Both the position numbers and the translations under genes were made by a program. 36,184 bases of DNA from Clostridia bacterium (GTDB taxonomy: Bacteria; Bacillota; Clostridia; HGM11514): NCBI GenBank assembly GCA_045586685.1, contig JAZNAU010000022.1, positions 1 to 36,184 of the forward strand, written 5' to 3'. Positions 11,698-33,146 of this stretch are shown in pieces. The notes beneath the pieces are model-generated. The model was given only the letters and a program-made list of their open reading frames with translations, searched no databases and was not told where the DNA came from. Numbering within the stretch: the first letter of the stretch is position 1; each line of letters begins with the position of its first letter.

Positions 11698-12032
11698 ATT
11701 TCAAGAAGTTATCGTCACATTAAAGATTATGAAAAAGAAATTTTAAAACTTAAAGAAAAGGGTTTTACTAAAAAAGAAATAGGAAATCAATTAGGTTTTA
11801 GTAAGGATCAAATCTACAACTTTTTTGTAGGTACAATAGAAATCAACGAAAACTTGCAGCAGGAATAGCTATAAAACCCAAGGGGCGACCACCAAAGGAC
11901 TATGCTGTAAGTGAACAGGATAAAGTTGCAGAACTAAAATATATTCTCGCTCGCAAAGAAGCAAAAATTAAAAGTTTGGAGATGGAAAATGAACTGATGC
12001 GGGATTTTCTTTCGCTCACAGAAAGGAAGTGA
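11698..12032 (+). pseudogene. IS3 OrfA (HTH transposase) with lost start codon and frameshift
   Basis: Reads SRSYRHIKDYEKEILKLKEKGFTKKEIG..., frameshift near 11828, then ...KGRPPKD...LEMENELMRDFLSLTERK*. Presumed start is ATT instead of ATG. Confidence 0.75.
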
Positions 12033-12851
12033 GAACAAGCGTAAAATATATGGTTATCTACCATCACAAAGACAAGTATTCAATTAGTGAAATGTGTAGA
12101 TTTTTTAAAGTATCAAGAAGTGGATATTATGCTTATGTAGTCCGAATGGATATCCCGGCAAAAGACTTGCCATTGGCAGAAAAGATAAAAGAATGCCAGG
12201 ATAAGTGCGGGAAAACGTATGGTTATCGCAGAGTACAAATATGGCTCGAAAGACACGGAATACACTATAATCCTAAAACAGTCCTACGAGTAATGCAGAA
12301 ATACAATTTGTTATCTATTGTTAGAAGAAAGAAATATCGTAATTACGGAGAATATCTGCATCGTTATCCTAATTTACTAAACAGAGATTTTTAAGCAGAA
12401 AAATCAAATCAAAAATGGGTTACAGATATTTCTTATATCAAAACAAAACAAGGAACATTGTGTTTATCTGTAATTAGAGATTTGTTTGATAACAGTATTG
12501 TTGCTTACAGAACCGGAACGGAACAGAATATTAACCTTGTTCTTTCTACAATCAGAGCAGCAACTCCACAGTGACCAAGGCTTTCAGTATACTTCACACG
12601 CGTACTTTAAGCTAACTAAATCATACAACATTACACCATCAATGTCAAGGAAAGGAAATCCATATGATAATTCTTTAGCTGAAAATTTCTTTTCTATTCT
12701 CAAAACAGAATGTATTTACAGAATCAAACTCAAAACCTATGATGAGGCTCGCTTCATCATAGATGAATATATTCATTTCTACAATAACGAAAGAATACAA
12801 CTAAAAACAAAACTGACACCACAAGAAATGCGATGTCAGTATGATGCTTAA
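12029..12851 (+). pseudogene. IS3 OrfB DDE transposase, interrupted
   Basis: YGYRRV and PNLLNRDF, then in-frame TAA at 12392 before KWVTDISY. A frame change/deletion near 12555 precedes LHSDQGFQY, SRKGNPYDN, AENFFSILKTE. Confidence 0.85.
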
Positions 12852-12954: not shown

Positions 12955-13596
12955 TTAATCAACCGTTTCTGCGGTATATTTTGAAATTTCCGCTTTCATT
13001 CTGCACAGTTTTTTGTCGATTTTTGCCATATCGTCTGCAGTTTGCTTAATTTCATCTTGTAATGCTTTGGGAATTTGGATTCCCGATTTATAGTAAATTT
13101 TGTGTTCCAAGCCCGCCCACAAATCCATGGCAACGGTGCGAATCTGAATTTCAATTCTAACGGGCGTTACCCGGTCAGTGAGAAACACAGGCACCTCCAC
13201 AATCATATGATAGCTTCGATATCCGTTAGGTTTTGGATTTTTAATATAGTCTTTAATGGTTAAAACGGTAATGTCGTTTTGTCGTTTTAACTGTTCTGCT
13301 ATGGTATACACGTCCTCAATCAAGGAGCAGATGACTCGGATTCCGCCAATGTCATTTAAATGCTGTCTGGCATTTTCCAAGGTTGGCTCCAAACCCATTC
13401 GCCGTAGTTTTCCCATAATATTCCGAGGGCTTTTGTTACGGCTTGTGATATGTTCAATAGGGTTATAATCATGCAAAAAATGATATTCATCGTTGATGAT
13501 GTTGAGTTTCGTTTCCATTTCGTCAATCCCAAATTTGCTCATCAAAAGCAATCGGGTCCAATCTTTTTGTGATTCTAAGTCGATCGTTTCCGGCAT
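12955..13596 (-). CDS. Small alarmone synthetase / GTP pyrophosphokinase (RelP/RelQ, YwaC/YjbM-like)
   Basis: NPIEHITSRNKS, DIGGIRVIC, KDYIKNPKPNGYRSYH, EIQIRTVAMDLWAGLEH. Confidence 0.92.
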   Translation of the reverse strand: MPETIDLESQKDWTRLLLMSKFGIDEMETKLNIINDEYHFLHDYNPIEHITSRNKSPRNIMGKLRRMGLEPTLENARQHLNDIGGIRVICSLIEDVYTIAEQLKRQNDITVLTIKDYIKNPKPNGYRSYHMIVEVPVFLTDRVTPVRIEIQIRTVAMDLWAGLEHKIYYKSGIQIPKALQDEIKQTADDMAKIDKKLCRMKAEISKYTAETVD

Positions 13597-25561: not shown

Positions 25562-26989
25562 CTATAATTCTATTTTTGACAATCCTGCCTCTGATGTTTC
25601 CTTATAAGATTTGTGCATATCAATTCCTGTTTCCTTCATGGTTTGTATTACTTTATCAAAAGAAATTTTTCTTGTATCCCATAAAAAGCTCGCTAAACTC
25701 ACAGCATTTATTGCTCTCATCGCAGCTACGGCATTCCTTTCAATACAGGGAATTTGAACAAGACCGCATATAGGATCACAAGTAAGACCAAGATGATGTT
25801 CAATTGCAATTTCAGCGGCATATTCAATTTTTTCTATACCTAATCCAAAAAGTTCCGCAAGCGCCGCTGCGGCCATAGCACAAGCACTTCCAACCTCAGC
25901 CTGACAACCACATTCTGCACCGGAAATAGAGGCATTTGTTTTAATCAGATTCCCTATTATTCCTGCAGTCATCAATGCTCGAACTATACTCTCATCTGTA
26001 AAACTATTTTTTTGTTGCTGATAGTAAAGCACCGCCGGAACGATGCCTGCCGCACCGCAGGTGGGGGCTGTGACAATAGTTTCTCCTGATGCATTTTGCT
26101 CTCCGACAGCAAAAGCATAAGCACAAACCATTCTGTTTTCTCTGGTTTCAGCTGTTTCGTCTATGTGTTGATTATCAAACAGAATTTTTGCTTTCTTTTG
26201 AACGTTAAGACCACCGGGCAGTTCTCCGAAATCTGCTAATCCGCTTTTTATACAATTTTTCATTACATTCCAAATTTTTGTCATGTAGTCCATAAAATCA
26301 TCATCTTCGTTTTCCAATGCATATTCCCACAATCTTATATTTTTCTTTTGACAGTAGTTAGATATATCATAAAACTTACTTTGTTTATAAACTGTTTTTG
26401 GAGTTTCAACATCTTGATTTTCAAAGACTATACTTCCTCCGCCAACGCTTAAAACTCTGTTTTTACAAATTTCTTTTTTGTCTTTATATGCAATCAAATC
26501 AAATGTGTTGGGATGAGGTATATTTGCAGTTATAAAATCAAACTCTACATTGCACTTGTAGGGAAAAAATGTCTTTTTTATAACCGCATCTGTACCATGT
26601 CCTTTTCCTGTTTTTGCTAACGAACCATAAAGAACAACCTTAAAACTATCTGCATCATAGTTTTTTTCTTTAAAAATTATACATGCTTTTTCCGGACCAA
26701 TAGTATGAGAACTTGATGGTCCCCTTCCAATTTTATACAATTCTGTTATGGACTCCATGCCACTACCTTCTATATTAGTAGTTAAAACATTATTGTCAAA
26801 AAAGCATTCTACCGGCACATTAAATATTTTAGCTAAATTTATTAAGTTCTGTCCTGATGGATTTGATAGACCGGATTCCCACTTAGAAACCGCTCTATCA
26901 CTAATGCCTATATATTCACCTAACATTTTTTGAGACATTTTGTTTTTCACTCTTAGTTCTCTAATTTTTGAGTTATTAAAATTTTCCAC
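25562..26989 (-). CDS. XRE-family HTH fused to single-chain [4Fe-4S] L-serine ammonia-lyase (SdaA-type)
   Basis: aa 1-65: IRELRVKNKMSQKMLGEYIGISDRAVSKWESG (HTH_3). From aa 78: MESITELYKIGRGPSSSHT, LYGSLAKTGKGHGTD, TAPTCGAAG, GAECGCQAEVGSAC, HHLGLTCDP..GLVQIPCIERN, YKETSEAGL. GAGGTG RBS before GTG. Confidence 0.9.
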   Translation of the reverse strand: MENFNNSKIRELRVKNKMSQKMLGEYIGISDRAVSKWESGLSNPSGQNLINLAKIFNVPVECFFDNNVLTTNIEGSGMESITELYKIGRGPSSSHTIGPEKACIIFKEKNYDADSFKVVLYGSLAKTGKGHGTDAVIKKTFFPYKCNVEFDFITANIPHPNTFDLIAYKDKKEICKNRVLSVGGGSIVFENQDVETPKTVYKQSKFYDISNYCQKKNIRLWEYALENEDDDFMDYMTKIWNVMKNCIKSGLADFGELPGGLNVQKKAKILFDNQHIDETAETRENRMVCAYAFAVGEQNASGETIVTAPTCGAAGIVPAVLYYQQQKNSFTDESIVRALMTAGIIGNLIKTNASISGAECGCQAEVGSACAMAAAALAELFGLGIEKIEYAAEIAIEHHLGLTCDPICGLVQIPCIERNAVAAMRAINAVSLASFLWDTRKISFDKVIQTMKETGIDMHKSYKETSEAGLSKIEL

Positions 26990-27286: not shown

Positions 27287-28636
27287 TTATAATTCTATTC
27301 TAAATTCCGTTCCCTTCCCAACTTCACTTTTTACAGTAATCTCTCCACCATGGAGTTCGATTATGCTCTTTACCATTGAAAGACCTAATCCGCTGCTGCC
27401 ATATTCGTCATTACGGACATCATCAACACGATAGAAGCGAGTCCATATTTTATCAATATGTTCTTCGGATATTCCTACGCCGTTATCTGCAACAACAATT
27501 TCTGTTCTATCACCAATTCTTGAAGCCGAAACGTTAACATGACCTGATTTATTACCATACTTGATTCCGTTGCTGATAAGATTTGTAATTGCAGAAAGGA
27601 GCAAAGATTCATCTGCATCTACAATCGTTCCATCGGGTACATTTGAGAAAAGCAATATTTCTTTTTGTAATGCAAATTCCTTCATACTGTCAATAGCAAC
27701 ATCAATAATTACACCAAGGTCAACCTTTTCCTTATTGAACTTCTGTCTGTGCTGATCTATCCTTGCAAGAAGCAAAAGTCTTGACACAAGCTTTGAAACC
27801 TGCTTTGATTTGTCAACGATAGTTTGTGCAAGTTCCTTTTCTTTTTCATCCTTTGCAATATCTAAAAGATACTCGCCCTGCGCAAGAATAACACTGATAG
27901 GTGTCCTCAATTCGTGAGACGCATCCGATGTAAACTGCTTTTCTTGAATAATAAGATTTTCAATTTTATCAAGCATATTATTAAGTGTGACCGACAAGTG
28001 ATGTAATTCATCTTCTTTGCTATCTGTCGATATTTCAATTCTTCGTGTGATGTCTTTTTGATGCGAAATATCATTTGCTGTTTTTACGATATTGTTTACA
28101 GGTCTGAACGCTCTTTTTGTAATGTAGTATCCGCCAAGGGCTGTTAAAAGTAAGATTAGTGGAATCAAAATAAGCATAATTACAATAGCAGACCTACCCA
28201 AAAGCATTGTGGAATTAACCGATTCCACACCTCGTATCCAAAATCCGCCACGCACACCGGGTGGAGTTGGAGTTTTAGTATCATAAACAATATATTCTTT
28301 TCCGTCAATACTTTCTCTACGGGGAATACCTTCTTCAAAAGGAATATTTACAACATCATAAATATATTGACCTACAATGTATTTTCCGCTTGCTTCGTAT
28401 ATGGATACATTCTTGAATTCTTCTTTACTATCAACCAAATCAAAAACATCTCTTTGCATTTTAGACAGTTTTTCTGTTACCTGTGTAACCTGCAAGATTA
28501 CATCCTTTTCTACGCTATCTATTGAAAGCTGATAGGATAATCCTCCAACTAAAGAAAGCACAACAAAAATAAGCACAAACATAAGAGACGTGTACCATAT
28601 TGTTATTCTTGTTTTTATAGAAGTTATCTTTTTCAT
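27287..28636 (-). CDS. Sensor histidine kinase (2 TM, HAMP, HisKA, HATPase)
   Basis: FTSDASHELRTP H-box, NLISNGIKY, DNGVGI, RFYRVD, GLGLSMVK. Confidence 0.95.
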   Translation of the reverse strand: MKKITSIKTRITIWYTSLMFVLIFVVLSLVGGLSYQLSIDSVEKDVILQVTQVTEKLSKMQRDVFDLVDSKEEFKNVSIYEASGKYIVGQYIYDVVNIPFEEGIPRRESIDGKEYIVYDTKTPTPPGVRGGFWIRGVESVNSTMLLGRSAIVIMLILIPLILLLTALGGYYITKRAFRPVNNIVKTANDISHQKDITRRIEISTDSKEDELHHLSVTLNNMLDKIENLIIQEKQFTSDASHELRTPISVILAQGEYLLDIAKDEKEKELAQTIVDKSKQVSKLVSRLLLLARIDQHRQKFNKEKVDLGVIIDVAIDSMKEFALQKEILLFSNVPDGTIVDADESLLLSAITNLISNGIKYGNKSGHVNVSASRIGDRTEIVVADNGVGISEEHIDKIWTRFYRVDDVRNDEYGSSGLGLSMVKSIIELHGGEITVKSEVGKGTEFRIEL

Positions 28637-28637
28637 A

Positions 28638-29309
28638 TCAATCTTCCTTAATTACATACCCAACATTCTTAATCGTGTGGAGTAGTTTTTTCTCAAAGTT
28701 ATCGTCAATCTTCTTGCGAAGATGGTGGATATATACCTTTATAACATCACTTGAGCCTTCATAATCATAGTTCCAAATGTTTTCTTCAATCTTTTCCTTT
28801 GAAACGATAATGCCTTTGTTTCGCATAAGGTATTCAAGCACAGAGTATTCCTTTGAAGAAAGTTCAATTACTGCATCTCCACGCTTTACAACTCTTGTGG
28901 TTGTGTCAATACTCAAATCTGCAATTTCAAGTATAGTGCCTGTAACAATCTCTTTTACACGGAGCATTACTCTGATTCTTGCACAAAGAATGTCAAAAGA
29001 GAAAGGCTTGGTAAGATAATCATTTGCACCTATGTCAAGTCCGTTTATTATATCTTCATCCGAGTCCTTTGCCGTAAGCATTAAAACGGGAGTGAGAATT
29101 TTCTTATCACGCATAATGCGTAAAACATCAAATCCGTTAATTTTAGGCAGCATAACATCAAGTATAACTCCGTCATACTTGGTGTTCTCTATATAATATA
29201 AAGCATCCTCGCCGTCAAAGCAATTATCAACTGTATATCCTATTTTTGTAAGTCTCTCTGTTAATGTCTTATTAAGATGCTTTTCATCTTCAACAACCAA
29301 GAGTCTCAT
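28638..29309 (-). CDS. OmpR/PhoB-family response regulator
   Basis: MRLLVVEDE, LDVMLP, LTAKD, GANDYLTKPF, VYIHHLRKKID, TIKNVGY. Confidence 0.95.
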   Translation of the reverse strand: MRLLVVEDEKHLNKTLTERLTKIGYTVDNCFDGEDALYYIENTKYDGVILDVMLPKINGFDVLRIMRDKKILTPVLMLTAKDSDEDIINGLDIGANDYLTKPFSFDILCARIRVMLRVKEIVTGTILEIADLSIDTTTRVVKRGDAVIELSSKEYSVLEYLMRNKGIIVSKEKIEENIWNYDYEGSSDVIKVYIHHLRKKIDDNFEKKLLHTIKNVGYVIKED

Positions 29310-29389
29310 AAATTCACCCCTTTTGCCTTTTAATTGTAACATATTATCATTTAAAATTCAACAAGACTGATTTTCTTACGTTAAAGATT

Positions 29390-29418
29390 TAAGGTGTGAC
29401 GGTTGTCGTCACACCTTA
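29390..29418 (-). terminator. Hairpin between CotH gene and response regulator
   Basis: TAAGGTGTGACG-GTTGT-CGTCACACCTTA, perfect 12-bp stem. Confidence 0.7.
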
Positions 29419-29423
29419 TTCAT

Positions 29424-31031
29424 TTACTCCTTTGATGAGCTTTGATTATTTTCTTCTGGCATTTTCCTGTCAGCATTATTTCGGTTTCCGCCAAAGCCAC
29501 CCATCATAAACTGTCCTAAATCAGAAAGATTCAGATGCGATGCATCAACAAGCTTTGTTGAGTCAGCCTTCTGCCCTTCTGATGTTGACGGTATTGTTCC
29601 GTCAAGCTGTCCCTTTATGCTTTCTGCACGAAGCATTGCTGCATCGTATAACACCTCTATACCCTTTACATATTCCTCATAGGTGTACATACTGTTGGGG
29701 TCAGCCTTTACAAGCTGGTCTATCTGGCTTGTAATTCTGTTATATGTTTCTTCAAATTTTCCGCCGTACAGATATTCATTCACAAGCTTATTGTAATATT
29801 CGTGGTAGCGTTCCAGATATTCTTCATTTTCAAAAACAAAATCGAAAAGCCTTGTTCCCTGCCACAAATCGTCAACAGGCTCATTTATAACCGTTGTTCC
29901 GTCTCCGCGATGCATTCCTCCAAAGGAAAGGTTATAATCCCATGGCAATATGCTGATTTGACCATTTGCCTCATACAGATAATAATTATGTGACATAGAA
30001 CCGCTTAAACTATCATCATTGACAGAAAAATTATGAACTGCCATATATTTAAGCACTTGGTCCACATCAATATACTTTTCAATATCTGTTGAACTATGCA
30101 CATTCTTTAAAGCCTTAACAACTCTTTCGTGGTCGGCCTTTGTGCTGTCATTAACTTCACTGTCCCATATTGTCTGGTAGCTGTCCAAATTATCATCGGT
30201 GTAGTTTAAATTACTGCCTCCGCCCATACCGCCAAAGCCACCGCGTCCTTCTTGTCCGCCATCGTCCGAGCTTGACATCTTGGGTCTGTTTTGCCCTGCA
30301 TTGTCAAAATTATCGGGCATTTTAAACCCACCTTCAGGTGGTATGGGAAAGTTAAAATTACCTTCTTGCTTTTTTCCGCCATTGTTACTGCCAAACCCCA
30401 TACTGTCAGGCTTGTACAAATATCCCTTTTCCATGCCATAGTTACGAAGCATAAAGCTGTCTTCAACGGCTTCAAGTGCAAGATACACGCCCCAATATTC
30501 GTTATTTACCGATATTTTTGCAAAGTTATATAACGACGCATCCACACCCATATATTGAAACATATCGTAGATGATAGCTTCCTTCATATTCGTTGTATCC
30601 GCATAGCTGTTATTTAAAACTAATTTATCAAGTCCAAAGCACGTCTGTCCGTCAACGAACTGGTCAAATTCAAGTTTAAAGCTGTATCTGTTATTATCAG
30701 GGTCATTTGCAATAGAGGAAAGACTTGTGTTGCCCTTAGGCCTGATACCAACCTGCTTAAACGTAGTGCCGTTTATAATAACATCACACTCGTAATACAC
30801 TTCCTGTATTGCATTACTTAGACTCTCGTTCCACTTTTCATCATCCATAATGATATCAATATCAAGAATATCACTGGTATCAAATAGCTTGTCCTCATAT
30901 TCCATGCTGTAACCAGAGGTATTTACAACAGGCAAAAGCTTATCATAAAAGCACATTGCAAGGATACATAAAATTAAAACAACAGATATAAGTATAATCG
31001 TTATTTTTGCAATATGTTTATTGGATATCAT
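29424..31031 (-). CDS. CotH kinase family protein with N-terminal membrane anchor
   Basis: GIRPKGNTS, SFKLEFD, KLVLNN, GVYLALEAV, GYLYK, NDDS, HNYYLY, LPWDYNLSFG. Contains a Gly/Pro/Met-rich insertion. Confidence 0.88.
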   Translation of the reverse strand: MISNKHIAKITIILISVVLILCILAMCFYDKLLPVVNTSGYSMEYEDKLFDTSDILDIDIIMDDEKWNESLSNAIQEVYYECDVIINGTTFKQVGIRPKGNTSLSSIANDPDNNRYSFKLEFDQFVDGQTCFGLDKLVLNNSYADTTNMKEAIIYDMFQYMGVDASLYNFAKISVNNEYWGVYLALEAVEDSFMLRNYGMEKGYLYKPDSMGFGSNNGGKKQEGNFNFPIPPEGGFKMPDNFDNAGQNRPKMSSSDDGGQEGRGGFGGMGGGSNLNYTDDNLDSYQTIWDSEVNDSTKADHERVVKALKNVHSSTDIEKYIDVDQVLKYMAVHNFSVNDDSLSGSMSHNYYLYEANGQISILPWDYNLSFGGMHRGDGTTVINEPVDDLWQGTRLFDFVFENEEYLERYHEYYNKLVNEYLYGGKFEETYNRITSQIDQLVKADPNSMYTYEEYVKGIEVLYDAAMLRAESIKGQLDGTIPSTSEGQKADSTKLVDASHLNLSDLGQFMMGGFGGNRNNADRKMPEENNQSSSKE

Positions 31032-31070
31032 ATTCCTCCTCCTTTTCCTTAAGATTTTTTCAGCCTTGCA

Positions 31071-31634
31071 TCAATAGTTCTTTCTTCTGTAGAAAATAAC
31101 AAAGATAAAAGCTAATACCAAAAGAACAACAGAGGTTATGGGAGCCGAATTTGTTTTGACAAAGCCTGAAAATCCCTGTGGCTGTTCTTCCTGAGCAGCT
31201 TGGTTAAAGCCTTGTAAATTACCTGGGAATCCGCCCATGTTTGCGGGATTTAATTCTCCAAACTGTTCATTTCCACCCTTTTCCTGGTTTGACTCATCAC
31301 CTATTTGTGATTCCTGCTGATTTGATGTTTCATCATTATCATTTGAAGTTGGATTTGTCGTTTCTGTAATTTGATCAGGGTTGCCCTGAAAAGGATTAAA
31401 TTCTCCGTCATTCTGCGGAGGTGTAAAGCCCTCCGGCGGAGCAAAATCACCTGAAGGCATTCCCCCGCTTGGCATATCAGGTGGTGTTCTTCCTTGCATA
31501 TTGCCGCTTGGCGGCGTTTTCTGTGATGCCTCCAAGCCAGAGCCATCAGTTACAACTCTTGTATTTTCAGCCATTGCAACTATACTGAACATCAGGCAAA
31601 GTGCAATAACCATTAAAATTGTTTTTTTCAGCAT
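31071..31634 (-). CDS. Secreted, intrinsically disordered protein with C-terminal TM anchor
   Basis: Signal peptide MLKKTILMVIALCLMFSIVAMA, P/G/S/T/Q/N-rich body, TM ITSVVLLVLAFIFVIFY plus RRKNY tail. AAAGGAG RBS. Confidence 0.8.
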   Translation of the reverse strand: MLKKTILMVIALCLMFSIVAMAENTRVVTDGSGLEASQKTPPSGNMQGRTPPDMPSGGMPSGDFAPPEGFTPPQNDGEFNPFQGNPDQITETTNPTSNDNDETSNQQESQIGDESNQEKGGNEQFGELNPANMGGFPGNLQGFNQAAQEEQPQGFSGFVKTNSAPITSVVLLVLAFIFVIFYRRKNY

Positions 31635-31652
31635 TTTTAGTCTCCTTTCGCC

Positions 31653-32324
31653 TTACGACATATACTCGCCGTTATAGGAAACTAAAACTGCATTTGTTAC
31701 ACCCTCACAAGCCGAGATTTTATTTACAAAGGCTGTGTTGTCGTCCTTGATTCGTACTTCATAGGTAAGCTCAACGCCTAATTTGTTTACTGATTTTGAT
31801 TTCAAAAGGCTCTTTTTAGCCTCTTCTTTAATAAGTTCATAAGCTGCATTTTCTGTTTCTCCGTTCTCGCAGCTTACTACAAGAATGTACGGAGTATCGC
31901 CGATTTTTCTTGTTGAGAAAACAACAATAATAATACCGATAATAACAGAGCCGATAATAGCAAGAGGCAAAAGCCCTGCACCAAGAACGATACCTACCGC
32001 TATTGACCAAAACAAAAATGCTATATCCATAGGCTCCTTAATTGCTGTTCTGAAACGAACTATAGAAAGAGCACCCACCATACCAAGTGATAATACAACG
32101 TTGGATGTTACTGCTATAATTACAAGGCTGGTTATCATTGACATTGCTATAAGCGATACACCAAATGAATCTGAATACATAACACCCTGATAGGTTTTTT
32201 TGTAAATCAAAAAAATAAACAGCCCCAATACAAAGGCAAGTCCCAGTGCTAAAAGCACATCTAATGTTGAAAAAGAATTAATGTTTGATAAAAAGCTTGA
32301 TTTAAATACATCTGAAAAAGTCAT
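31653..32324 (-). CDS. DUF4956 domain membrane protein (MgtC/SapB-like N-terminus, C-terminal ACT-like domain)
   Basis: SNVVLSLGMVGALSIVRFRTAIKEPMD, FLFWSIAVGI. Adjacent to VTC gene. Confidence 0.85.
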   Translation of the reverse strand: MTFSDVFKSSFLSNINSFSTLDVLLALGLAFVLGLFIFLIYKKTYQGVMYSDSFGVSLIAMSMITSLVIIAVTSNVVLSLGMVGALSIVRFRTAIKEPMDIAFLFWSIAVGIVLGAGLLPLAIIGSVIIGIIIVVFSTRKIGDTPYILVVSCENGETENAAYELIKEEAKKSLLKSKSVNKLGVELTYEVRIKDDNTAFVNKISACEGVTNAVLVSYNGEYMS

Positions 32325-32353
32325 GATTTCTTACTTCCTTTCGTTATGTTTGA

Positions 32354-33019
32354 TTATATTCTTACTGCCGCATATTTTGAGAAGGCGGCACTTCTTCTTG
32401 ATTTAACCTGAACACAGTCTCGGATAATCTGCGGAAGATATTCATCCCACTTTACCTCTAAAATTGAGTCGTGATAGGTTTGCAGAAAAGGTAAATCCTT
32501 ATTCAGAAATTCCTTTACATTGTTGCTGCCGCATATATCCCTGTCAAGTGTTACCCTGACATTTCCTGCGGGATACACAAAGCATTCCCGATTATACGCA
32601 ACAATACATTTGGGGCGAAGAAGCTGATATTTCATCTTTGAGTATAGCTCTCTCATCAGTTCATTCTCACTATCCCGCATAAATTCAATATCGCCGTCAA
32701 TAATCTTTTGACATTCTTCTTTAGTAATCCTACAACTTATTTTGTTGCATAAACCGTTTATCTTGCTCTTCTTCTCCAGTCGGATAAAGGACGTGTCCGT
32801 GCCGTAATACCTGATACGAAATTTTTCCCGTTTGTTGACTCCGTCAATCTTTTCCCTAAGAGCCTTGTCCATATAATTATCAAAATACAGACTTTTAACA
32901 AAATATGTTCCATCTGCACCACAATTCATATCGTGTTTTGCAACCGCAGAAAGTCTTGTTCTTAGACCATATATATCTGCAAGATTTATCTGATGCTTGT
33001 ATTCGTGTCTGAATTTCAC
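32354..33019 (-). CDS. VTC (polyphosphate polymerase, CYTH/triphosphate tunnel) domain protein
   Basis: RHEYK, SLYFDN, REKFRIRYY, LEKKSK, YNRECF, VRVTLD, ILEVKW, FSKYA. GGAGGTG RBS before GTG. Confidence 0.88.
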   Translation of the reverse strand: MKFRHEYKHQINLADIYGLRTRLSAVAKHDMNCGADGTYFVKSLYFDNYMDKALREKIDGVNKREKFRIRYYGTDTSFIRLEKKSKINGLCNKISCRITKEECQKIIDGDIEFMRDSENELMRELYSKMKYQLLRPKCIVAYNRECFVYPAGNVRVTLDRDICGSNNVKEFLNKDLPFLQTYHDSILEVKWDEYLPQIIRDCVQVKSRRSAAFSKYAAVRI

Positions 33020-33074
33020 CTGTTATCACCTCCATAGCCTATGTAATCCAAAGGTATTTCTCTATTTGATAGTT

Positions 33075-33106
33075 ATTATAAAAACCCAATGTTAAAGTAA
33101 AGTTAA
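33075..33106 (-). promoter_or_regulatory. Promoter of VTC operon with OmpR/PhoP-type direct repeat
   Basis: Minus strand TTAAC-TTTACT-TTAAC (11-bp period, 33106-33091) covers the -35 position. TATAAT at 33080-33075. Confidence 0.55.
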
Positions 33107-33119
33107 TCTAATAAAAAAA

Positions 33120-33146
33120 GCTGTAGCAAAATGATTTTGCTACAGC
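33120..33146 (-). terminator. Intrinsic terminator after AraC gene
   Basis: GCTGTAGCAAAAT/ATTTTGCTACAGC stem followed by a T7 run on the minus strand. Confidence 0.8.

Follow-up and report, generated by a model that had tools for sequence, protein, structure and literature searches.

The genes closest to those reported here have been described as accessory genes of Gram-positive pel operons, in which a trio of cotH, 'PPP' and DUF4956 was recorded (bioRxiv 768473). In Streptococcus intermedius the trio comprises SIR_1594, SIR_1593 and SIR_1592, described as a secreted CotH-like kinase, a cytoplasmic VTC-like polymerase and an ACT-domain protein with four transmembrane (TM) segments assigned to the MgtC family, respectively (bioRxiv 2024.04.20.589940). 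The trio is also part of NELoc-2 of Clostridium perfringens (PMC11677781). The VTC-DUF4956-CotH neighbourhood is already in print, then, as an uncharacterised pel-operon accessory. Here we analysed a stretch of 36,184 nucleotides from a Clostridia bacterium (GenBank assembly GCA_045586685.1, contig JAZNAU010000022.1; the whole stretch is called the window), in which VTC, DUF4956 and CotH genes lie together in a cassette unattached to pel genes. A first-pass annotation, made from the sequence alone, had proposed that VTC and DUF4956 form a split prokaryotic equivalent of the eukaryotic VTC complex that exports polyphosphate (polyP). It had also noted that no such system was known to be functionally characterised, and our full-text literature search, with subscription journals outside its coverage, agrees in having given no measured activity for any bacterial member.

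We tentatively read the region as an envelope cassette that is self-contained and controlled by a two-component system, with a core that may be a split prokaryotic counterpart of the eukaryotic VTC polyP synthase-translocase; judged from sequence, we rate this as possible, somewhat short of an even chance. The listing of open reading frames (ORFs) gave six consecutive co-oriented ORFs on the minus strand (27287-33019), encoding in order the VTC protein, a DUF4956 membrane protein, a small protein here called P3, CotH, an OmpR-family response regulator and a sensor histidine kinase. The intergenic gaps are 29, 18, 39, 81 and 1 nt. Both the six-gene arrangement and the spacing of 18-39 bp between the first four genes had been given in the first-pass annotation, and its domain assignments were borne out by HMMER searches, in which VTC, DUF4956, CotH, the regulator and the kinase all scored at or above the Pfam gathering score. 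Close relatives are found in uncultured gut and rumen Clostridia.

The VTC gene (32354-33019, minus strand) has a GTG start preceded by GGAGGTG and encodes a protein of 221 aa that consists of the VTC domain only, without an SPX domain or a membrane segment (Pfam PF09359, residues 3-217, 140.1 bits against a cut-off of 23, E 1.1e-40). When its AlphaFold model (pLDDT 96.4) was compared with the PDB using Foldseek, the top 11 listed matches were all tunnel domains of Vtc4, Vtc3 or Vtc2 (E 8e-15 to 1e-12, query-normalised TM-score 0.64-0.76), and bacterial, archaeal and plant triphosphatases and cyclases appeared as weaker fold matches (E 3.8e-8 or worse). Yeast Vtc4 was also matched by a profile of the VTC homologues searched against the PDB (E 1.7e-11). 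A whole-library search with the VTC protein returned 4271 homologues at E<=1e-3, and the relatives returned by two near-length homologue searches, with at least 8000 candidates each, were all 82-100% identical. Such close homologues occur in very large numbers.

Conservation was analysed in 88 full-length diverse VTC homologues (37-58% identity), in which R4, E6, Y45, K66, R68, R70, Y72, E82, K84, K93, R144, D159, E188, K190 and K215 are invariant. In yeast Vtc4 the residues that ligate triphosphate and Mn, and that polyP synthesis requires, are K200, R264, R266, K281, Y359, R361, E426, S457 and K458; mutating the first seven lowers polyP in yeast, and K458 is the sole position that differs between active Vtc4 and the inactive Vtc2/3 (bioRxiv 2023.01.27.525886). 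The profile alignment pairs K8, R68, R70, K84, Y142, R144 and E188 of the window protein with the first seven of these, in that order, and all seven positions are invariant or at least 90% conserved among the 88 homologues. The last two ligands may correspond to S214 (at least 90% conserved) and K215, which lie 19 residues past the proline aligned to Vtc4 P438; this pairing was made on spacing alone, as HMMER left the stretch unaligned. The first-pass statement that the basic and acidic motifs of the tunnel enzyme are intact is in line with this. By sequence and model, the window VTC is the closest bacterial analogue of yeast Vtc4, and we regard it as a putative polyphosphate polymerase.

As a separate observation, six VTC homologues of 409-496 aa (P0349, P0360-P0362, P0379 and P0380) carry a disordered N-terminal extension of 190-270 residues that is very basic, rich in K/R/P/Q and without a Pfam family. 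These extensions could bind polyphosphate.

The membrane partner (31653-32324, minus strand, 223 aa) matched Pfam DUF4956 (PF16316) with 43.7 bits against a gathering score of 30.6 (E 3.1e-11), as did all 71 aligned cassette homologues. Its model (pLDDT 77) has five helices (20-44, 52-71, 74-94, 98-115 and 119-137), consistent with the multi-TM protein described at first pass, followed by a C-terminal beta-alpha-beta-beta-alpha-beta domain (ACT-like, 145-216). The best Foldseek match was the C-terminal domain of Mycobacterium tuberculosis MgtC (2lqj, E 1.5e-3), followed by ACT and NikR domains, with no match at E<=1e-3. Sequence links to MgtC are weak (15 bits against a cut-off of 31.4 for Pfam MgtC, E 0.033, with 13 of the 71 homologues matching at E<=0.1; 30 bits against a cut-off of 214 for NCBIfam PRK09977; a weak Atlas score of 0.76), so we call the protein MgtC-like and not a member of the family. 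No relative was found when the DUF4956 profile was searched against PDB sequences. Conservation peaks in the stretch NVVLSLGMVGALSIVRFRTAIKEP, where R90, R92 and K96 are invariant, and by the positive-inside rule, applied by inspection, this basic stretch is predicted to end at the cytoplasmic side. Identity to cassette homologues outside the window's clade is 58-68% for DUF4956, 51-62% for VTC and 36-48% for CotH. A prediction of the VTC and DUF4956 complex, each entered as an alignment, scored 0.00 and is taken as evidence neither way.

To place the cassette among its relatives, loci were collected from one genome per species using 20 closer VTC sequences as the query, giving at least 597 confirmed relatives among 600 matched stretches. 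The census covers the best 80 of these loci, which share 51% or more identity with the query in their best aligned segment and come almost entirely from Clostridia, with one archaeon (L022). A DUF4956 homologue was present in 79 of the 80 loci, the exception (L017) ending at the VTC gene. It starts no more than 250 nt downstream of the VTC stop for 73 of the 79 VTC genes with room for it; for the remaining six, DUF4956 lies in the cassette with another spacing or order (L009, L018 and L073, with overlap in ORF calling; L022 twice; and L048). This co-occurrence of VTC and DUF4956 is far beyond chance. For the third gene, the count took in the 67 cassettes whose sequence runs on for at least 1.5 kb past DUF4956; within 900 nt a CotH gene follows in 49 and a Cthe_2159-family gene in 12. 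Among the other six, CotH lies slightly further out in three (L004, L043, L052) and the rest have neither family (L032, with MatE; L057, with a 1200-aa GH130-containing protein; L058). The conserved core is VTC-DUF4956, followed by a membrane-anchored ectoprotein, which in most of the loci is CotH and in 12-14 an unrelated Cthe_2159 protein. The first-pass annotation had stated that this neighbourhood recurs in annotated genomes, and the census agrees, with CotH next in most loci. Genes flanking the cassette differ from locus to locus.

Two further observations came from the census. Three of 107 upstream neighbours are phosphate-related, namely an inorganic pyrophosphatase (L005:8175-8708), a PstS-like PBP_like_2 protein (L006:4656-6134) and a CBS-containing DHH-family protein resembling family II pyrophosphatase (L079:6127-7785); this may be chance. 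The archaeal locus, on the chromosome of the methanogen Methanimicrococcus stummii, holds two cassettes side by side, one ordered DUF4956-CotH-VTC and the other VTC-DUF4956-CotH. Its VTC is 52% identical to that of the window, which together with the double cassette suggests transfer from gut Clostridia.

The CotH gene of the window (29424-31031, minus strand) encodes a signal-anchored protein of 535 aa from the atypical kinase family (Pfam PF08757, profile positions 1-320 of 322, 199 bits against a gathering score of 23.8, E 1.8e-58), which aligns to Bacillus cereus CotH 5jd9 (E 2.4e-9). The N-terminal anchor and the KGN, NDD and PWDYN motifs named at first pass are present, and the motifs are conserved in 47 cassette CotH proteins, among which K99-G100-N101, N338 and D365 never vary and D340 is kept in at least 90%. 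In the alignment to the 5jd9 chain, D340 falls on position 224 and D365 on position 247. The catalytic aspartates of Bacillus subtilis CotH are D228 and D251 (PMC7821199), and we infer a four-residue offset between the 5jd9 chain and the B. subtilis numbering. A G/N/D-rich insert of about 85 residues (approximately 208-292) lies within the kinase domain. The domain is predicted to be extracytoplasmic, as had been proposed. A basic N-terminal stub precedes the anchor, and a second, C-terminal TM segment with a KRRK-type tail is found in most complete proteins (35 of 51 for CotH, 10 of 13 for Cthe_2159); in these, both termini would be intracellular and the enzyme domain extracellular.

Cthe_2159 proteins form a beta-helix family that resembles polysaccharide lyases and binds cellulose and polygalacturonic acid (bioRxiv 401869). 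The cassette members of this family have in common with cassette CotH an N-terminal module of roughly 30 residues, consisting of MSTHKHIDKIC, a membrane helix and then FMNGE-LG; the window CotH carries the variant MISNKHIAKI. Comparison of the anchors showed that they track the cassette lineage and not the type of ectodomain. The Cthe_2159 protein of L006 falls inside the window's clade and its four nearest anchors all come from CotH proteins of that clade, and the nearest anchor to that of the L069 Cthe_2159 protein is likewise a CotH anchor. When the CotH/Cthe_2159 label was mapped on a quick IQ-TREE tree of VTC and DUF4956 with 79 rows, 4 changes were needed, of which well-supported branches force at least 3; shuffled labels needed 13.1 changes on average, and none of 500 shuffles was as low as 4. 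CotH and Cthe_2159 have been exchanged at least three times independently on the same conserved anchor. Because the 12 cassettes with Cthe_2159 among the 67 counted carry a non-kinase on this anchor, the VTC-DUF4956 core is not there to feed a kinase. That a kinase is interchangeable with a beta-helix of a polyanion-binding family argues instead that the common substrate is a surface polymer.

The same two families are met together elsewhere: CotH and Cthe_2159 are both among the Pfam domains reported as unique, within fungi, to anaerobic gut fungi, and the gut-fungal Cthe_2159 was inferred to derive from rumen Clostridiales (bioRxiv 401869).

P3 (31071-31634, minus strand, 187 aa) is without a Pfam family. 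By inspection it has a signal-like N-terminus (KK, a hydrophobic stretch and VAMA|E), a middle of 138 residues rich in G/P/N/Q/E with 21 acidic against 5 basic residues, and a C-terminal hydrophobic segment (161-184) followed by RRKNY, features that fit the secreted, low-complexity, membrane-anchored protein described at first pass. Its place as a conserved member of the module did not hold, as homologues were found only in the 6 nearest of the 80 loci. Its residues 113-187 match the tail at the C-terminus of the L007 CotH (E 1.8e-4), which indicates that P3 is a copy of this CotH tail that has become detached and is specific to the lineage. CotH proteins of the window's clade are without the C-terminal TM segment, and P3 is present instead. 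An acidic composition rich in G/P/M/F/N/Q is common to the CotH and Cthe_2159 tails, P3 and the inserts of both ectodomain types.

Upstream, the cassette is bounded by a hairpin with a 12-bp stem followed by a T-run (33120-33146, minus strand). This strong hairpin terminates an AraC-type gene, and the cassette therefore starts independently of it; AraC homologues were present in 4 of the 80 loci. A -10 hexamer, TATAAT, was read at 33075-33080 (minus strand), and about 10 nt from it a 16-bp direct repeat, TTAAC-N6-TTAAC (33091-33106, minus strand), overlaps the -35 region. The position of the hexamer is conserved in L001-L005, where the arrangement is kept while the flanks diverge, and variant TTAAC half-sites occur in L006 and L008. 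The repeat has an 11-bp periodicity. Its arrangement with the hexamer has the geometry expected for an OmpR-family activator, and the repeat is a candidate site for the cassette's own regulator.

The regulator (28638-29342, minus strand, Pfam Response_reg and Trans_reg_C) probably starts at its second methionine (MRLLVVEDE, about 29309), and the histidine kinase (27287-28636, minus strand, Pfam HAMP, HisKA and HATPase_c) has hydrophobic segments at 9-39 and 140-158 flanking an outside loop of about 100 residues. Pfam confirmed the OmpR/histidine-kinase pair that the first-pass annotation had placed after CotH. Between CotH and the regulator lie a hairpin with a 13-bp stem and a weak T-tract (29390-29418, minus strand), a possible terminator or attenuator, and a promoter-like site (29333-29361, minus strand; TTGAAT, 17 nt, TACAAT with TG) that is a pattern match from a consensus scan, so the two-component genes may form a separate transcript. 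The top NCBIfam models were a heavy-metal cztR/silR/copR subfamily for the regulator (222 bits, cut-off 279) and a heavy-metal sensor subfamily for the kinase (214 bits, cut-off 293); with both scores below cut-off, heavy-metal sensing was set aside as unsupported. As a lower bound, many loci being incomplete, 39 of 81 VTC genes have two-component genes no further than 5.5 kb away. A gene-order census of 79 VTC genes, also giving lower bounds, placed them upstream and divergent in 14, upstream and co-oriented in 11, downstream in 9 and otherwise in 2, with none in 43. Homologues of the sensor loop were found only in the 4 nearest loci, so two-component systems beside distant cassettes cannot be called orthologous.

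Fused forms were found among the homologues. In one metagenomic lineage (P0436, P0483, P0464 and relatives), helices 1-4 and half of helix 5 of DUF4956 are fused to the CotH anchor and a complete CotH domain, without the ACT-like domain; the lineage is heavily sampled, a single cluster at 90% identity holding 662 member sequences. Other candidates were set aside. The complete VTC/DUF4956 fusions P0425 and P0486 are read-throughs of adjacent genes from one contig each and are weak as evidence of coupling, and several DUF4956-CotH fusions (P0391, P0396) are deletion chimeras missing part or all of the kinase domain.

Taken as a mechanism, our reading would run as follows. The OmpR-type regulator would bind TTAAC-N6-TTAAC at the -35 region and turn on VTC-DUF4956-P3-CotH. 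The soluble Vtc4-like enzyme, as its conserved catalytic residues suggest, would make polyP from ATP at the inner face of the membrane. DUF4956, probably oligomeric, would present its invariant basic RFRxxxK stretch on the cytoplasmic side, hold VTC at the membrane and pass the growing chain outward. Outside, the polymer would be handled by the ectoprotein docked through the cassette-specific anchor (CotH here, a Cthe_2159 beta-helix in other lineages), and the acidic low-complexity segments of P3, the CotH insert and the CotH tail would probably serve as acceptor or scaffold. What results would be a polyanionic layer of polyP or phosphoprotein on the cell surface. Export of polyP by the cassette is plausible. 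It is a good deal more doubtful that VTC and DUF4956 form a polyP synthase-exporter independent of PPK1/PPK2 in which CotH uses the emerging polyP, not ATP, to phosphorylate acidic tails (P3) outside, while the beta-helix captures the polymer elsewhere. The idea that polyP is the phosphoryl donor of CotH is weakened by the non-kinase replacements; we give it a low probability, and it survives only as a special case for CotH-bearing cassettes.

Several results weigh against this mechanism. Searches of DUF4956 detected no Vtc1-type channel-helix similarity, matching only DUF4956 and, weakly, MgtC. MgtC, itself only weakly similar, is the only known look-alike and is described as regulating ATP synthase and PhoR, not as forming a channel (bioRxiv 2024.04.20.589940). 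A pore made from a protein of 223 residues would require oligomerisation. The junction of the DUF4956::CotH lineage puts CotH on the ACT-like side, which is hard to fit with CotH outside and the ACT-like domain inside. A PDB search with the C-terminal 68 residues of VTC, aimed at the mapping of K458, gave no Vtc4 match. Pel and aggregation were unaffected when the homologues were deleted in S. intermedius (bioRxiv 2024.04.20.589940), yet this is neutral on a polyP role. The split VTC-complex equivalent of the first-pass annotation stands in part: the Vtc4-like active site and the tight VTC-DUF4956 linkage were found, and the partner is a five-helix MgtC-like protein with an ACT-like domain, not a Vtc1-type one. 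Of its wider interpretation, the domains, active site, linkage and placement of CotH outside were upheld, and a Vtc1-type partner, P3 as a conserved member and a core serving the kinase were not.

The same features can be read with polyP staying in the cytoplasm. The MgtC-like DUF4956 would then work by way of its ACT-like domain, as a tether or as an allosteric regulator, and the ectoproteins would be coupled only through their anchors and basic stubs, for example by the stubs binding polyP at the inner face or signalling the state of the envelope to the enzyme. The S. intermedius preprint proposes a cytoplasmic product, because the other VTC subunits are missing (bioRxiv 2024.04.20.589940); relatives of MgtC are described as regulators, not transporters; the ectoproteins have conserved basic ends (a K/H-rich N-terminal stub and, in 45 of 64 complete proteins, a C-terminal KRRK-type tail); and some VTC homologues have the long, very basic N-terminal extensions. 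We nevertheless consider a purely cytoplasmic role unlikely; it leaves unexplained why the third gene product is always extracytoplasmic and enzyme-like or polyanion-binding, why two unrelated ectodomains interchange, and why the membrane helices of DUF4956 are so highly conserved. VTC might also not polymerise at all, being a triphosphate-tunnel hydrolase or a nucleotide/polyP sensor that regulates DUF4956, with CotH a conventional ATP-dependent kinase of surface or secreted proteins. Most bacterial CYTH/TTM proteins with solved structures are triphosphatases or cyclases, which do appear as weaker fold matches, and full-text literature searches (subscription journals outside their coverage) found no bacterial VTC-domain protein with measured polymerase activity. 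The model is far closer, however, to Vtc4/3/2 (E about 1e-14) than to hydrolases or cyclases, the aligned Vtc4 ligand set is conserved together with an invariant lysine at the position expected for K458, and a kinase outside the cell would have no ATP. A non-polymerase role is very unlikely.

The published context raises one more explanation, in which the trio serves as an accessory of the Pel exopolysaccharide or in a spore coat, CotH has a matrix glycan or coat proteins as its substrate, and the polyP genes are there only incidentally. Streptococcus, Bifidobacterium and some Clostridia have the trio downstream of pelG (bioRxiv 768473, bioRxiv 2024.04.20.589940), and the latter preprint reports it as not found outside pel operons; moreover, B. 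subtilis CotH is a spore-coat kinase (PMC7821199) and Cthe_2159 proteins bind cellulosic and pectic polymers (bioRxiv 401869). Here, no pel-type family was seen among the ORFs scanned in the 36-kb window (8 in one scan, 26 in another), and no pel gene occurred among 107 upstream neighbours in 59 related loci. The S. intermedius deletions left Pel unaffected (bioRxiv 2024.04.20.589940), the cassette CotH is membrane-anchored while the coat kinase is soluble, and the cassette is present twice in an archaeon. We consider this explanation most improbable, and our data correct the printed impression that the trio is confined to pel operons.

The remainder of the window holds housekeeping genes, with three features of separate interest. 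An L-serine dehydratase (25562-26989, minus strand; alpha chain and a short beta-chain part) has an N-terminal XRE-type helix-turn-helix, an unusual fusion of an enzyme with a DNA-binding domain. Two short ORFs at 12029-12851 (plus strand, GC 0.33) carry HTH_21 and integrase-core (rve) pieces and resemble a broken IS3-type transposase. A 213-aa protein (12955-13596, minus strand) has only a RelA_SpoT synthetase domain and is a small alarmone synthetase.

Bacterial polyphosphate is generally attributed to PPK1 and PPK2. If the proposed polyP synthase-translocase reading is right, bacteria would have an additional polyP route, run by a widespread Vtc4-like enzyme and its obligate membrane partner, and this might be the first system for polyP export in bacteria. 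Such a system would matter, too, for the supply of a phosphoryl donor to kinases outside the cytoplasm; polyP as the donor would solve protein phosphorylation in an ATP-free compartment. The real conserved unit is VTC-DUF4956 plus an anchor carrying a swappable ectodomain, and it is this unit that we compare with the known systems. As modelled, DUF4956 may resemble MgtC/SapB, in which some five helices at the N-terminus precede an ACT-like domain on the cytoplasmic side, but it scores far under the family cut-offs, and we know of no MgtC protein that pairs with a VTC enzyme. The window CotH belongs to the same Pfam family as Bacillus CotH and conserves the residues aligned to both catalytic aspartates. 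It differs in being membrane-anchored, with its domain predicted outside and the insert of about 85 residues in the kinase domain, in not lying beside CotB/CotG-like substrates, and in being exchanged for a non-kinase beta-helix in related cassettes; its N-terminal anchor argues against a spore-coat location.

Compared with the pel-operon trio, the same three families are found together, but the window cassette does not lie downstream of pelDEA(DA)FG, is unattached to a pel operon and has its own two-component system and promoter repeat. The gene order here is VTC-DUF4956-(P3)-CotH, and CotH carries low-complexity inserts, not an FN3 domain. With the yeast VTC complex the window cassette has in common the tunnel fold, Vtc4 being the best structural match of the enzyme, the triphosphate and metal ligands where they can be aligned, and an enzyme genetically tied to a membrane protein whose conserved basic residues are, in the window, predicted to face the cytoplasm. 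Unlike yeast Vtc4, the window enzyme has neither an SPX domain nor a membrane segment, and its partner is a separate DUF4956/MgtC-like protein. The target compartment here would be the cell exterior instead of the vacuole, the cassette unit includes a third, surface-anchored protein, and control would be by a two-component system, whereas the yeast complex is controlled by inositol pyrophosphates.

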